A DNA stretch of 60,660 bases, filler included, from Basidiobolus ranarum (GCA_040143965.1; 7 parts of 7 records of this genome joined end to end with filler, not necessarily neighbours in it), one strand, 5' to 3'. Numbered from the whole stretch's first letter, positions 2,542-26,172 are shown. Made by a program: numbers and translations. Notes: generated from the sequence alone by a model not told the origin.

Positions 2542-5500
2542 TGTTAAAGTATTTGGGAGCCTGTTGGAAGTGGTTTTGGAGAATTAAGGAATTGGTGGTT
2601 TTCACTTATTGATTTATTGAATAGAAAGTTGAAATTTATAGTTCTGTCAAGATATAAACAAACTAACTTGTAGAATATGATAAGGAAGGTCACAGGAGCA
2701 TGTGTACAAAGTTTGGGGCTTCAAGCACAAGTTTGAAAAATGGATTTATCTGAGAACTTCCAAGTTGGTAAAATATTTGAAGGAAATCCCAATTAAGAAT
2801 AATGGATAATATCTCAGTTAATTATAAGATAACTAGGTATTAAGCTATATATCACTATATAGGTGTTTAGGCAATGCTAATTTCAGCACTCTTTCTCAAC
2901 TAGATAGTCATACACACTAATCCTAAGAAAGGTCTAAATTTCTCAAATTTCTTTCTAATTAATGGTTTGGTTAATATATCAGCCATCAAGTCTTCTGTAG
3001 AACAATAAGTTAAGTCAATAAACTTATTCTCTATAGTGTCTCTAATGAAGTGATGCTTAATATCTATGTATTTGCTTCTATTGTGAAACATGGGATTTTA
3101 GCTAATTTGATACAACTTTGATTATGCTGAAATATTGTATTTGGTGAATTTTGAGAATAACCTAAATCGGTCAAGAGTTTCTTTTCCATGCTGCTTCTGT
3201 TGTAGTTTCACAGGCAGCCATATATTCAGCTTCTGTTGTTGAAAGTGCTATGGTAGGTTGTTTCTTTGAATTCCAAGAAATAGCTACATAACAGCAAAGA
3301 AATAAGTATCCTGTTGTAGATCTCCTGTCTTCAATATCTCTTTCCCCATTTGCATCTGAATATCCCATCATATTAAAGTTTGATCCCAAATATATGTATT
3401 TTAAGCATAGATCCACATTATCTTTCAAATATCTGAAAATCTGCTTAGCTACTATGATTTGATCAGATCCATAATTTTAAAGATATTGGCACATAACTCC
3501 CACAGAATAAGCAATATCTGGTCATGTTCCAACCATGATGTACATCAAACTACCAACCGTAGATTGATAAGGAAATTTCTGGCTTTGATTTGAATCCAAG
3601 AATGTCTGATTTAAGCCATTTTCAGTCATGTTAAGATTTGTCTCCATTGGGGTAGATACTGGATTACTTCCTTCTAATTTAAACTTCTTTGGTATATCTA
3701 GGATATACTTAGATGGGTTTAAAGTTAATGTTCTGGTAGTTCTATTTATCTTAATTTGGATTCCAAGATAGTATGTCAGTTCATCAACATCAGGCATTTT
3801 GAATTGGCAGATAGGCTGGATTTGTTTTTCTCCAAAGTCCTCAAGTCATTGGTTGCTATAATAAGGTCATCTACATATAAGGCTAATAATACTGGGTTTG
3901 TCTTATCTGGCCTGAAGTAGATACTATAGTCAGCATTACATGTTTGGAACTTGAGTGTTTCCAAAAAAGCATCTTGGTTGGGGGGTTGATTTGAATTCCA
4001 GAAATTAGGCAATTTTTGATGATTTTCCTCATATAATCAATTCCAATATGGCCAAATCTCTTATGCCATAATTGAATAGTTTCTTGATTGGATTAACTTA
4101 TATTTACACATAAACCTTTTGGATTATATGAAAGTTTGTATAAGTTCTGATCCTTTTTTCTCAAAGCTAAATAATTCTCATTTTGATCAGTGATGGTGTA
4201 TTCTGTCTTATCAAGATTGAATTTTAGCCCTTCTGAGGTGGCCTTGCATACAGATATTAAGTTCTTGGCAATATCTGGAACATGTAGTATGTCCTTAAAA
4301 GTATATGCTTTCTCTTTAAAAACTCCAGTTAAATTGACTTGAATTGTTCCCAATCCAATAGCATCCAATGTGTGGTCATCTCCCATGAAAATCTTTCTAA
4401 TTGGGATTTCTTCATATTCCACAAACCAATGTTTTTTATTTGTGAGATGTTGGGAGGCTCTAGAATCAATATGCCACATCTGAGAATCCTTGTTGGTATT
4501 CATAGATACAGCAGATATAAGCAAGTGATCTTCTGTTGTAATCACATTTCTGGATTCAGTATGTTTTTCTTCTTTCTCAATTCTTTTAAAGCAATCTTTG
4601 CTTGAATGGCCAGTTGTTTTGCTGTAATCACAGAATGTGCTACCTTTCTTCTTAAAGTGCTTTTGACCTTTGTATGAAGGTTTTCTATAGCCTCTTATAG
4701 TATTTTCTTGATTCTTTTTGATGGATCCTGATTTGCATAAATCTTCATCCAGAAGTCTGCCAAATACATAATTTAAGGTCATCTTTTCAGTTCTTGATTC
4801 AAGGGCCATTACTAGGCTCTGAAACTTGTGTGGCAGGCTATTCAGGACTGTAACTATGATATCTTGATCAGTAGTAGGTATTCCAATGTGCTCCACTTCA
4901 TCCATTAAAATAGAGACTCCATTAATTAGTGATTTAATGTCTTCTCCTGCCTTCATCTTTAAGTTGAAGAATTGTCTTCTTAGAAACATCTTGTTGGCAG
5001 CAGAACTTGTTTAGTAGGTGTCTTCCATTTCTGTCCATACCTTCTTGGCAGTTTTAGTTCTTGAACATTGAGTTAGCAATTTGTCTTTAATATTTAGGCA
5101 AATTGTGTTAAAGGCACTTTGTTCTTTTTAAACCGGAGTAAAACTTTGGTTTCAGATAGTTTTGCATTGTTTTCTTCTCCTACAACAGTGTCTCAAGGTC
5201 CTTTTTCTTGCAGCAGCATTTTCATTTTAATTTTCCAAACTTGATAATTGGTTGCATCCAATTTTTCAGAAGAGGGAAAAGTTCCATAGATTTGCAAAGT
5301 AGACAATACTGAGAGTGCAAGCTCTGGGCTCATAGCCTGTTAAAGTATTTGGGAGCCTGTTGGAAGTGGTTTTGGAGAATTAGAGTAATTGGTAGATTTC
5401 ACTTATTGATTTATTCAGTAGAAAGTTGACATTTATAGTTTTGTCAACATGTCAACAAACAAACATGTAGAATATGTTAAAAAAGGTCCCAGAAAAGTGT

Positions 5501-10611: not shown

Positions 10612-11905
10612 TTAATCCACTACAATATCCTGCCGACTCTCTTCCTTGTCCTATGAAGATGAATTAGTATGGTAGTCTGTAGAAAGCGAATACTTGAAAC
10701 ATCCATTACTCTCTTTTTCTTTTTCTTTTTACGGTGTTCTCCATCATGACTCTCGTGGTCATGATCGTGTCTGTGTTTCTTTTTCTAAATTCAACGTATG
10801 AGAAACGATGTGTCAACAATACTAATGATACATGAATACCAACCTTCTTTTTGTGCTTTCTTTCGCCATCCTTGTCTTTATCCTTATCTCTATCCTTCTC
10901 ACGATCTTTACGCTTAGCTCTTTCCCTATCACGGTCTTTGTCTTTATCTCTGTCTCTTTCTCTGTCCCTATCCCGGTCTCTGTCACGCTCTCTGTCTCGA
11001 TCACCGTCACGTTCTCGGGGCCGCTCACGAGGCCGTTCAGTATCTCGTTCCTTGTCGCGTTCGCGACTTTTATCATGCTCTTTAACTCTATCTCTAGAGG
11101 GAACTGAATTGGTTTTTTTAAAAAAAAGGGTAAGTTAAAACAAAACAAAACTCGGACACTCCAACTGTCAATCTCGTGAAAAATAAAATCACCTGAAGTT
11201 GAAGAAGGAACAGGTACAGAAGATTCTGGTTTAGGCACGGTTGGTTTGATATTACGTTTACGAATGTCCCGTTCAGAACCAAGTCTTGATACATCAAACT
11301 ATTGGGGAAAAATAACAAAAAAACCTAATAAGATAAAGAGATATTGTCGTATATTAGAAATAAATATATATACTCCGGGTACAGTTCCAGGTCTTAAAGA
11401 AAAGGCATCTTTAAGTGTGTCTACATCAAAAGGAGAAATGTTTCCTGCTGCTTTAGGGGGAGCCATGATCAAGTCTCTCAAATATGTGGAAGGAGTAAAA
11501 TCCGTCTTCCCTAGAAAATAAAAATGAAAATACAACCAGAGTTGAGTAAACACACGTAAAATAAAAAGGTAACACGTTGACTATTGTTCATACCAGGTAA
11601 CTCTTTCACATATCCCTCATAGGTCTCTTCCATCTGAGGTGCTCTCTCAGCTTTCAGATAAGGCCGTACAAAAGCGTTGTACGTGGAAGCCAAATTAAAT
11701 TCGGTAATAAAATCTTGACTACCAGAGTACCTTGGAGGCCGTTCTTTATTATTTAAAATTGACCCATGTTTTTAGACGAATCACTTGGTTTCAGTTAAAA
11801 AAACAAGAAGTGTAAATGATCGCTACCTCGTGGTGTATATTGTGTTGGTAGATAGAAATCATTATTTGTTTCAACCGATTCCATTGTAAAATCCATCGGC
11901 TCCAT
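10612..11905 (-). CDS. MED19: Mediator subunit Med19 (Rox3-like), multi-exon, with RD/RE-repeat and Lys-rich tail
   Basis: Spliced protein FYLP..YSGSQDFITEFNLASTYNAFVRP..YVKELPGK..LRDLIMAPPK..FSLRPG resembles the Med19 core; C-terminal KKKHRH..KKKKKKR; ATG 11905, TAA 10612-10614. Confidence 0.8.
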
Positions 11906-12457
11906 TGTTGAATACGGCAAAGCGAAGACAACTGGAGATGAGTAAAAGCCTACGAAAGCCAGCTCTAAATTTAAAATAACTCCTATTTTTATTGATGTAT
12001 TTTGAATTGTGAGGGGTTATTTCATAAATTACGAAACTCAAAGTCACTGGATTAATCGAAATCAATGCTCAATTTACTAGGGGCAAAACTCAATACAGGG
12101 ATGTCACTAAATGCCAAAAGTAGGAAACTTCTTAATAAATATCTGTAACCGAGTAGTTACTTCCAAATGACGATAATTTAAGACTCAATAAATATCTACA
12201 TTTTAAATTCGATTCTTTTAATCTTCATTTTATTGGATGAATTGAGAAATTTGGGAAACCATTTCTGATATTGGGGATTTTTTTTCTTCTTTCCTTGACC
12301 AATGAAAATGAATTTCTCACATGGATCCTCGAACAATGAAAAAGGTGAAAGTATTTAAGCATGGCTTCATCTCTTTGTGTTCCTTACTTCTCCGCTCCAT
12401 TAAGCGTGTTCTTAAGGTATTTAATCAATGTTTGATTTACTTCTATCTTCAATCTCT

Positions 12458-12532
12458 TCAAATGATGATCCAAACTCAGACCTGTTCTGAACACACATGT
12501 GGACAACATACATTGCCTTTTATTCTGATTTC
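12458..12532 (+). ncRNA. Box C/D snoRNA, snR56/U25 (SNORD25) type, copy 1
   Basis: C box ATGATGA 12462; guide CAGACCTGTT antisense to 18S AACAGGUCUG; D' CTGA 12487; C'-like ATGTGGA; D CTGA 12525. Confidence 0.88.
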
Positions 12533-12668
12533 TATCCAGTTTTTAACCATCATATTGTTATCGAACCGTTTCTGACTCTTTCAAATTCCTAGACCTTGTA
12601 TATTACTCATCCTTATGGAATACGTTTGTGTAAATAATGTAAGTTATATTCCTAGTTGCATATTCAAA

Positions 12669-12750
12669 ATTCTCAGTGATGATCAACATTTCAGACCTGT
12701 TCTGAGTCCATAATGCGGATAACCTATATTGCCTTTTATCTGACGAGAAT
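12669..12750 (+). ncRNA. Box C/D snoRNA, snR56/U25 type, copy 2
   Basis: C box GTGATGA 12676; CAGACCTGTT followed by D' CTGA 12702; D CTGA 12740; terminal stem ATTCTC/GAGAAT. Confidence 0.88.
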
Positions 12751-12887
12751 CTATTGAATATCATTTTATATTCTTATGAACCAACTCTAATCAATTTCTC
12801 TTTCAAAGATATGAAACTCTTATGACGTATTGACTAGAAGTGCTCGATTAACTCGTTGCTGATTAGGTAAATATCATTTTGTTATAT

Positions 12888-12977
12888 AGTGCCTTAATGA
12901 TGATTCAAAACTCAGACCTGTTCCAAGTAAGCAAATGCGGACAAACAAGTTATTGCCTAATGTTTCTGAAAAGCACT
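12888..12977 (+). ncRNA. Box C/D snoRNA, snR56/U25 type, copy 3 (degenerate D')
   Basis: C box ATGATGA 12897; CAGACCTGTT followed by CCAA; D CTGA 12966; terminal stem AGTGC/GCACT. Confidence 0.82.
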
Positions 12978-13110
12978 TTATTTAATTGCAAATACATTAG
13001 AGTCTATTCTAACTGTTTATTAGTAATTTCAGACATGTTATGAAAAGTCCTTGTATAATAATAGCACCGCAACGATGAGCACAATGTAAGTTGAAATTTA
13101 TGTTTATAGT

Positions 13111-13198
13111 TAACTATTGAAGTGATGATACAAATCTCAGACCTGTTCTGAATACACATGTGGACAACATATATTGCCAAATACCTGATTAATAGTTA
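13111..13198 (+). ncRNA. Box C/D snoRNA, snR56/U25 type, copy 4
   Basis: C box GTGATGA 13122; CAGACCTGTT followed by D' CTGA 13148; D CTGA 13185; terminal stem TAACTATT/AATAGTTA. Confidence 0.88.
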
Positions 13199-13366
13199 TA
13201 CCCTAATCTATGAATATTCTTCGTGGCAACGTACTAATATATTTCATTTCTAACAGGGATATCGAAATATGCTCCGATTCTGTATAAAATGATCCAAATA
13301 AAATATTATAATTCTACATTTTGTTCTTTTTAATTTATTCTGAAAAATCAATACAATTATATAATG

Positions 13367-14462
13367 TTACGAGGTTAGTATTTGTGGGTTCGGGGAGTAG
13401 TAGCCAGCGGCTAATTGAAATATTAATAAATTTCTGGCTTGTAATGCATTTAGTTCTTCATAACCATTTTCAAAGATAAAATTTCTTCCTGTATACCTAG
13501 CCTTGCTTTCCCGATAATATTGATCATCAAAATTATGACCTGAAAAGCATCTTGAGACAATGACAATGGGTATTTGGTTGGTCCATGTTGGAGAGAGTTT
13601 CTCGATGAGTGAATCTGAAATGGAGCCAGTGCTTGGCGTTGCTAAAATTAATCCATCCACGTTTTCTAAAAGTTGTTCGGGTATAAAGGTAGACATCGTT
13701 ACGGTCCATATGACAACGCGCTTCTTGGACAATGCCTCTTGATTCACATGAAGAAACGAGGGATCATGAATCGAAGGGAGCAGGTAAGATATAGAATGGT
13801 GATAACGAGGAGTTCCTCGGTGTATTTGTCCTACAGGTCCGGTGGGCACCGACTTGAAGGAGACCTGGGAATCGCCTTTGGTAATATACAGAGCAGAATG
13901 AATATCATTATTGATACAGACCAACACACCTGTAGCTTTAGACCACTTCTCCAAAGCAATCTGGAAAAGGACAAAGATACCAGTCGTCAGTGAATATTAG
14001 CATTAGTTTAAAAAAACTCCATTCTAGAAAGTATACCTGAATGGCCCCTTTGATAGTGGAAAAGCCTTCATATCCTAAAATATCAGCTGGTTTCATCGAA
14101 CCAGTGATAACCAAGGATACTTTCTTTTCAACTAACCAATTTCTTAGATATAAGTCCAGACAAAAAGCAGCCTCTTCTATAATATCAGTTCCTACAACCA
14201 AGACAACCGAATAGATATTTGATGATTGTGAATTTTCAAGAATAGCATCTTTAACTTTGGAAATGGTTTCAAAGGTGAGCTCCGTTCCACTTGAACATCC
14301 TAAATCAACTACTATCGGATTTATACAACCTCTTATACGAGAGCTTAAGGATATCAAAAGCTCTAAGGTGTTTACAGATAAGTGCATCTCCCCATTCCCA
14401 GTGGTGTTTTGTCGGATGGCCTCACCAGTAACTATGACTAGTAGGTTTGAAGGGTCAGTCAT
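13367..14462 (-). CDS. Bacterial-type L-asparaginase/glutaminase-like protein, two exons
   Basis: Motifs VIVTGEAI, VVGTDIIEEAAFCL, VITGSMKP, GVLVCINNDIHSA..TK, PIVIVSRC and LNALQARNLL; intron CAG/GTATAC...TTCCAG joins the two ORFs in frame. Confidence 0.8.
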
Positions 14463-26099: not shown

Positions 26100-26172
26100 G
26101 GACTGGTAGCTCAGTGGTTAGAGCACCTTGCTAGAGTGAAGGAGGCCCCAGGTTCAAATCCTGGCCAGACCA
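26100..26172 (+). pseudogene. tRNA-like sequence (pseudo-tRNA or tRNA-derived repeat), nominal anticodon AGA on a short-variable-loop body
   Basis: A box TAGCTCAGTGG, B box GGTTCAAATCC, 73-nt cloverleaf; A.A mismatch in the acceptor stem and G.G in the anticodon stem; no CpG; no T4+ terminator. Confidence 0.75.

Follow-up and report, generated by a model that had tools for sequence, protein, structure and literature searches.

A compact array of four box C/D snoRNA-like units occupies positions 12417 to 13256 on the plus strand of the Basidiobolus ranarum DNA analyzed here (the window, a stretch of 60,660 nucleotides, filler included, in which seven parts of the assembly GCA_040143965.1 are joined end to end). 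The units are spaced 214 to 225 bp apart, and their C boxes start at 12462, 12676, 12897, and 13122 (intervals of 214, 221, and 225 nt). These positions and those of the shared motif bear out the preliminary description of a ∼220-bp unit present four times. In silico, each unit amounts to one snoRNA in one predicted intron, bounded by a donor, a branch point, and an acceptor, and the array as a whole lies between two genes on the opposite strand, a divergent MED19 gene and an asparaginase-like gene that is tail-to-tail with the host of the array (Table 1).

Table 1. Features of the four-unit locus and its neighbors (positions counted from the first letter of the window; a slash marks an exon-intron boundary)
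Feature	Position	Strand	Evidence and remarks
MED19 coding exons, divergent neighbor	10615..11905	-	ATG at 11905; protein search and tblastn
Intergenic/promoter region shared with MED19, plus exon 1	11906..12416	+	First donor AAG/GTATTT at 12417; start site inferred
Pyrimidine run in upstream region	about 12279-12297	+	Sequence reading
Putative intron 1, 176 nt	12417..12592	+	Donor AAG/GTATTT; branch TCTGAC, A 17 nt from AG; donor to C box, 45 nt; box D end to branch A, 47 nt
snoRNA copy 1, snR56 type	12458..12530	+	RF01188, 55.3 bits; guide CAGACCTGTT at 12477-12486; ATTGCCT at 12512-12518
Putative exon 2, 46 nt	12593..12638	+	Between acceptor 12591-12592 and donor GTAAGT at 12639
Putative intron 2, 170 nt	12639..12808	+	Donor AAT/GTAAGT; branch TCTAAT, 18 nt from AG; donor to C box, 37 nt; box D end to branch A, 47 nt
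snoRNA copy 2	12672..12745	+	RF01188, 55.0 bits; cognate terminal stem, -7.7 kcal/mol
Putative exon 3, 58 nt	12809..12866	+	Stops in all three frames
Putative intron 3, 166 nt	12867..13032	+	Donor TAG/GTAAAT; branch TCTAAC, 20 nt from AG; donor to C box, 30 nt; box D end to branch A, 43 nt
snoRNA copy 3, most divergent	12893..12971	+	RF01188, 45.9 bits; D' CCAA; longest second antisense element GTTATTGCCT; stem, -7.6 kcal/mol
Isolated guide-like 18-mer ATTTCAGACATGTTATGA	13026..13043	+	Spans intron 3 acceptor and start of exon 4
Putative exon 4, 53 nt	13033..13085	+	Between intron 3 acceptor and intron 4 donor
Putative intron 4, 171 nt	13086..13256	+	Donor AAT/GTAAGT; branch ACTAAT, 19 nt from AG; donor to C box, 36 nt; box D end to branch A, 49 nt
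snoRNA copy 4	13118..13190	+	RF01188, 52.9 bits; snoU25 (RF01298), 30.4 bits; stem, -8.6 kcal/mol
Putative last exon	13257..13320	+	AATAAA motif at 13297; polyA-like hexamers at 13283 and 13297
Asparaginase-like gene, tail-to-tail with host gene	13367..14462	-	Asparaginase (PF00710) and Asparaginase_C (PF17763) on two ORFs

The head-to-head arrangement with MED19, which had been proposed from the sequence, was upheld by a protein search that led to Pfam Med19 (PF10278) and placed the start codon of this minus-strand gene about 500 nt from the first host donor. The exon at 11374 to 11508 (minus strand, 45 aa) matches, with 100% identity, an NCBI protein of Basidiobolus ranarum (281 aa) that has the Med19 domain and bears a UniRef name beginning “Mediator of RNA polymerase II t...”, and tblastn with the 281-aa protein follows the gene from 11905 down to 10615. 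Pfam searches with single exon ORFs gave no Med19 match even at an E value of 10, and an ESM Atlas look-up of the 45-aa exon returned only scores of 0.80 or lower.

The host of the array has little room for a protein. A spliced model joined from positions 12230 to 12416, 12593 to 12638, 12809 to 12866, 13033 to 13085, and 13257 to 13366 contains no ATG-initiated ORF longer than 46 aa (start at 12321), and its exon 3 is closed in every frame; searches with five ORFs of the unspliced region gave no Pfam match at an E value of ≤1. These results agree with the earlier view of the host gene as noncoding and missed by ORF calling.

The sequence that defines the array most sharply is the exact 12-mer TCAGACCTGTTC, which occurs four times in the 60.6-kb window when both strands are considered, always on the plus strand (at 12476, 12691, 12912, and 13137), compared with a chance expectation of 0.25; none of 100 shuffles contained four or more copies. 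Every unit follows the same order, i.e., C box, a spacer of 8 to 9 nt, TCAGACCTGTTC, D' box, a short spacer, C' box, a further spacer, ATTGCC, 6 to 8 variable bases, and D box. All four copies have a C box (RTGATGA) near the 5' end, a terminal D box (CTGA) near the 3' end, a C' box of the form ATG(T/C)GGA(C/T)AA, and ATTGCC. The full box set ascribed to every unit in the preliminary description therefore stands for the C box, guide, C' box, ATTGCC, and D box. The D' box, directly after the guide, reads CTGA in three of the four copies and CCAA in copy 3. Environmental homologues have CTGA, CCGA, or CTGT at this position (variants read by eye), and CCAA is found in none of the 30 homologues listed.

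A covariance model search assigned all four copies to snR56 (RF01188) end to end, across model positions 1 to 84. Against the gathering score of 54 bits, copies 1 and 2 pass and copies 4 and 3 fall below (Table 1); the latter two have window-wide E values of 0.00022 and 0.0041, respectively, and snR56 is the best family for both. Copies 3 and 4 are best-hit relatives just under the curated cutoff. Runner-up families scored much lower (≤36 bits for snR61 and ≤30.4 bits for snoU25), and the placement of the guide in the snR56/U25 family, suggested previously, thus holds for every copy, with two of them under the gathering score. Rfam identified no further C/D snoRNAs in the window at an E value of ≤0.05. 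A generic scan of the whole window that combined C and D boxes with a terminal stem recovered copies 2 to 4 and nothing else, and shuffled windows gave 0 to 1 matches.

The splice signals attributed to each unit, a GT donor, a branch point, and an AG, were found where claimed in four of four cases. Expressed as a pattern (donor, 24 to 39 nt, C box, 55 to 70 nt, D box, 38 to 46 nt, branch, 12 to 18 nt, AG), the full arrangement matches the window on either strand only at 12417, 12639, 12867, and 13086, although any estimate of chance occurrence is post hoc because the ranges of the pattern were fitted to the four observed units. The branch-point A lies 17 to 20 nt from the AG and 43 to 49 nt after box D in all four introns. 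For human box C/D snoRNAs, a preferred position 50 nt upstream of the branch point is described, as is an snoRNP assembly that is generally splicing dependent unless long external stems are present (PMC5519232). A comparison with other introns comes from an ion-channel gene in the window, whose introns were delimited with a Basidiobolus meristosporus protein to which the ion-channel ORF is 86% identical. Its five native introns are about 55 to 65 nt long (lengths by eye) and have GTA donors and CTAAC, TTAAC, or CTGAT branches. Because native introns are this short and carry matching signals, the host intervals have the appearance of native introns made larger by the presence of one snoRNA.

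The guide points to a single rRNA position. In all four copies, the sequence before D', CAGACCTGTT, is the antisense of AACAGGTCTG, which lies inside the fungal 18S primer site NS7 (given as GAGGCAATAACAGGTCTGTGATGC in a table in PMC3395698). In the antisense of NS7, CAGACCTGTT is followed directly by ATTGCCT, the target stretch being that of a general fungal primer rather than the organism's own 18S. A second element, located 25 to 30 nt beyond the guide, reads ATTGCCT, TATTGCCT, GTTATTGCCT, and TATTGCC in copies 1 to 4, respectively, and in every copy it continues the antisense directly after the guide. Since guide and second element abut in the 18S antisense, each snoRNA comprises 16 to 20 nt of antisense to one contiguous 18S stretch, split by the D'/C' module. 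Judging by the guide and NS7, the corresponding stretch in this fungus is expected to be GGCAAUAACAGGUCUG.

The fifth base upstream of D' is a C, and it pairs with the first G of AACAGGUCUG. This G, the equivalent of yeast 18S Gm1428, is supported as the predicted methylation site, as had been derived earlier from the D'+5 rule, both by the antisense match to NS7 and by a Neurospora crassa table in which 18S-Gm1423 is equated with the site of snR56 of Schizosaccharomyces pombe and yeast, plant snoR19, and human U25 (PMC2780460). In yeast, 11 snoRNAs, snR56 among them, are listed by Van Nues and colleagues as having complementarity on the flanks of the methylation site, and such extra base-pairing is reported to have been stimulatory, two- to fivefold, for other snoRNAs (PMC3116282). 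The ATTGCC element, to which the preliminary description had given no role, fits this “extra base-pairing.”

The cores of the four copies (C box to D box) are 73 to 85% identical (z of 8.5 to 13), with the boxes, the guide, and ATTGCC as the invariant columns and with differing internal spacers. The 5' and 3' intron flanks and the exons are at background (z of ≤2.6). None of 10 local-alignment comparisons among the five inter-core segments was significant (lowest shuffle fraction, 0.087), and Tandem Repeats Finder returned zero rows for the locus, divergence between the units beyond their cores being too great. Duplication in blocks of two units, with exon 2 resembling exon 4 and exon 1 resembling exon 3, was considered on account of short repeats about 435 to 480 nt apart and was discarded, as none of the inter-core comparisons was significant.

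Terminal stems are a further retained feature of three of the copies. The stem energies of copies 2, 3, and 4 (Table 1) were reached by only 0.4%, 0.8%, and 0.2% of shuffles, respectively, and the stem sequences are unrelated, each pairing with its own partner only (non-cognate energies of −4.5 to +1.3 kcal/mol). Cognate pairing kept despite unrelated sequence is, at the sequence level, what compensatory maintenance would leave behind. For copy 1, no terminal stem reached significance over 14-nt flanks (+1.2 kcal/mol). An external stem for copy 1 over wide flanks was also rejected, its energy of −6.4 kcal/mol comparing with a shuffle mean of −5.8 and being equaled by 35% of shuffles.

The earlier claim that spacers and terminal stems have diverged while boxes and guide were kept is therefore sound, and such a pattern favors old duplications with purifying selection on function over recent duplication or blanket gene conversion. 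Since the neutral surroundings are saturated whereas boxes, guide, second element, and cognate stems have been kept, at least three copies appear to be under purifying selection, which would most simply be for the dosage of one guide. Duplication of whole exon-intron units and insertion of snoRNAs into existing introns may each be compatible with the locus; the two routes are indistinguishable because exons and intron flanks keep no detectable similarity.

One further trace of the guide lies outside the four units. The 18-mer ATTTCAGACATGTTATGA matches the guide-plus-D' stretch of copy 2 at 16 of 18 bases, with 0.01 such matches expected in the window, and is possibly the relic of a lost copy. 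A full but decayed fifth copy in exon 4 was rejected, the similarity being limited to 18 to 20 nt (z of 5.3 to copy 2) with neither side aligning.

Comparison with known snoRNAs places the individual units within a conserved family. The box order C, guide, D', C', AUUGCC, D is common to the array, snR56 of Saccharomyces cerevisiae and S. pombe, CD19 and CD41 of N. crassa, plant snoR19, and human U25 (SNORD25). The guide core CAGACCUGU and the 18S target G are likewise shared with the snR56/snoR19/U25 family, as is the second rRNA-complementary element next to the target with snR56, although the yeast snR56 consensus guide reaches further 5', whereas that of the array pairs over 10 nt only. Differences are greater in gene number. 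Yeasts have one snR56 gene each, compared with four adjacent paralogs in the array. N. crassa is described as having two dispersed genes of the snR56 type, both intronic (PMC2780460), in contrast to four paralogs side by side. A fungal snoRNAome paper states that a family is often represented by several paralogs within a single species and assigns snR56 to clan CD_19; the main text of this survey makes no mention of Basidiobolus, Zoopagomycota, or Entomophthoromycotina, and a literature search for Basidiobolus snoRNAs found no paper.

As a host gene, the locus resembles the published UHG-like fungal hosts (N. crassa clusters I to V and S. pombe clusters I to VII) and mammalian UHG and GAS5, which likewise are described with short noncoding exons and one snoRNA per intron, arranged head-to-tail on one strand. 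Those UHG-like hosts carry different snoRNAs with different targets, whereas the host of the array carries one guide four times. The statement in the preliminary description that multi-snoRNA hosts mostly carry different guides applies to these UHG-like hosts but suggests a greater rarity than the array has, as repeats of the same snoRNA across the introns of one host are well known in animals. In Drosophila, Uhg1 has several copies of U27, U29, and U31 in one host. In vertebrates, it is reported to be common for a host to carry paralogs of one snoRNA, each in an intron of its own (“cis-duplication”; PMC2653536), and SNORD115 and SNORD116 are described as large tandem arrays of a single snoRNA (PMC12429941). 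In both, as in the array, successive introns of a host carry repeats of one box C/D snoRNA. SNORD115 and SNORD116, however, are imprinted orphans that number in the tens, whereas what the array repeats, four times and with saturated flanks, is a deeply conserved, canonical rRNA guide of an early-diverging fungus. The copy number thus appears unusual for a fungus and the gene organization of a known kind; what stands out is mainly copy number and lineage, and the locus does not represent a new kind of system.

Environmental sequences provide a wider context. A metagenome scan with a pattern of boxes, guide, and ATTGCC returned at least 118 loci, and 43 matches with the full architecture were among those listed; the pattern required ATTGCC, and the presence of this element in the environmental matches is therefore by construction. 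No close relative of the array was found among the matches listed, the best alignment score being 35 for cores of ∼67 nt. Donor and branch signals on the sense strand accompanied 15 of the 38 listed environmental matches with full flanks, compared with 1 of 38 in the antisense control, several of the matches being near-duplicates, and the distance from box D to branch was 36 to 52 nt in 11 of the 15 with intron signals among the matches listed.

The closest parallel in organization is a metagenome locus (L034) with two snR56 copies (62.4 and 60.2 bits) on the same strand, 320 nt apart, the only such locus among the matches listed. As in the array, the two copies occupy separate intron-like intervals (GT..CTAAC..AG), and a pyrimidine-rich first exon precedes them. 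It differs in that an apparently different C/D snoRNA follows, and its sequence is GC-richer and not closely related. The two copies are nearly identical, which points to a recent duplication. A candidate for a second two-copy locus (L092) was rejected, its other match being on the opposite strand with a guide mismatch. The metagenome matches suggest that an intronic location is usual for the family, that duplication within a host has occurred elsewhere, and that a four-copy array is rare in the sample.

What is established at this locus is the covariance-model family of the copies, the conservation of boxes and guide, the geometry of the splice signals, the absence of coding capacity, and the identity of the neighbors. 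On this basis, the locus is probably a small noncoding host of the UHG/GAS5 type that has four introns and, in each of them, one box C/D snoRNA of the snR56/U25 type.

That the locus is transcribed, spliced, and processed and directs methylation is inferred, as is any reason for its having four copies, and the following pathway is modelled on the established route for intronic box C/D snoRNAs. The host gene would extend from 12300 to 13320 on the plus strand of the window and would probably be transcribed by RNA polymerase II from a ∼400-bp region shared divergently with MED19. Core proteins would assemble on the C/D motif during splicing, and the position of box D, 43 to 49 nt before the branch point, would favor this assembly. 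Debranching of the lariat and exonucleolytic trimming would then leave a protected RNA of ∼70 to 80 nt. The 10-nt guide CAGACCUGUU beside D' would anneal the mature RNA to 18S rRNA, with further pairing by (U)AUUGCC(U), whose match in the rRNA adjoins the guide target on its 5' side; by the fifth-nucleotide rule, the RNA would direct 2'-O-methylation to the first G of AACAGGUCUG. The four copies would be old paralogs. It may further be that all four are expressed, that selection has preserved each of them since a duplication so old that similarity at every neutral site has been erased, and that whole exon-intron units of a dedicated single-target host were multiplied to raise guide dose, with the relic reflecting unit turnover; we advance this extended proposal tentatively, as one that may well not hold in full.

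The most serious competitor of the main reading, a host with four functional copies, is an array that is only partly functional. One or two copies would then be active (copies 2 and 4 are the likeliest, their boxes and stems being complete), and copy 3 and/or copy 1 would be decaying pseudogenes that act as intron filler. Copy 3 has the lowest Rfam score (45.9 bits) and the CCAA D' box absent from the 30 homologues listed, copy 1 is without a significant terminal stem, and the relic at 13026 to 13043 suggests that copies can decay at this locus. However, copy 3 still has boxes C and D, its guide is exact, its stem of 8 bp is cognate, and its second antisense element is the longest of the four; copy 1 has the top Rfam score of all, and degenerate D' boxes are reported to be often active (PMC3116282). 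Moreover, with flanks this saturated, loss of the boxes would be expected in any copy free of constraint. We consider partial function rather unlikely.

The remaining alternatives question the host gene itself. The copies could be released from an unspliced polycistronic precursor by endonuclease cutting and trimming, as in yeast and plant clusters, with the GT..AG signals incidental; such snoRNA clusters are known in fungi, and the terminal stems of copies 2 to 4 belong to a class that can make assembly independent of splicing (PMC5519232). This reading is very improbable given that donor, branch, and acceptor lie at near-fixed distances in four of four units, an arrangement found nowhere else in the window, that these signals match the native introns of the ion-channel gene, and that an intron context accompanies 15 of the 38 listed environmental homologues, compared with 1 of 38 in the control. 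Even less credible is a silent relic, or a gene whose short exons encode a small protein and whose snoRNA-like sequences are secondary. The 46-aa ATG ORF from 12321 in the spliced model could be read in its favor, but boxes, guide, and compensating stems are selectively conserved against saturated flanks, exon 3 is closed in all frames, and the ORFs of the region have no Pfam match.

If the extended proposal of a dedicated single-target host with four expressed copies is true, the rule of one snoRNA per intron and the coupling of assembly to splicing would have forced multiplication of exon-intron units as the means of increasing the dosage of an 18S guide, and the relic ATTTCAGACATGTTATGA would be the guide of a dead copy (..UUUCAG/AC..) reused as a 3' splice site. 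The locus offers a compact example of intron-encoded snoRNA biology outside Dikarya. The match of its box D-to-branch distances (43 to 49 nt) to the mammalian position rule is a hint that splicing-coupled snoRNP assembly is ancient. For annotation, a gene of this kind is missed by ORF-based callers. Four diverged paralogs in one transcript would also constitute a test bed for the contributions of the terminal stem, D' quality, and the length of extra pairing to snoRNA accumulation.

The sequence ATTTCAGACATGTTATGA at positions 13026-13043 (+) of the window is identical at 16 of 18 bases to the guide-plus-D' stretch of copy 2, the snR56/U25-type snoRNA in intron 2 of the putative non-coding host gene, a match for which the chance expectation in the window is 0.01. 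It spans the putative acceptor of intron 3 (TTTCAG|AC), and comparison of the flanking sequence revealed no similarity to copy 2 beyond the 18-mer. Possibly, the 18-mer is what remains of a snoRNA copy that has been lost, with its guide now used as a 3' splice site.

Three further features were annotated in the window. The ORF with copia-type domains is a fragment of an LTR retrotransposon. The C-terminal exon of MED19, the gene arranged head-to-head with the host gene, gives rise to spurious Ser/Leu-rich ORFs on the other strand. The tRNA gene lacks a long variable arm and its stems contain nonstandard pairs (marked by Rfam), features that are unusual among serine tRNAs of eukaryotes; the gene could be degenerate or have been repurposed.

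Additional features of the window
Feature	Position	Strand	Evidence or description
tRNA, 73 nt	26100-26172	+	Rfam, 58.6 bits; ARAGORN, tRNA-Ser, anticodon AGA
MED19 C-terminal exon	10832-11113	-	Codes for a long tail of low complexity, with abundant Arg-Asp and Lys-Asp
ORF	4093-4989	-	Pfam domains: copia-type gag (PF14223), Pol beta-barrel (PF22936)

A pyrimidine run (12279-12297, +) lies upstream of the first donor of the host gene, and the putative first exon of L034, a metagenome contig locus with two snR56 copies, is strongly pyrimidine-rich (2950-3018). Vertebrate snoRNA host genes have 5'-terminal oligopyrimidine tracts, of which both sequences appear reminiscent.

At L034 positions 3596-3625 (+), GTAAAG and another C box (ATGATGA) come immediately after the AG acceptor of the second snR56 intron, an arrangement that looks like two introns back to back, without an intervening exon. 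In S. pombe, snR57/snR55 are organized in this same way according to a figure legend (PMC4138321).
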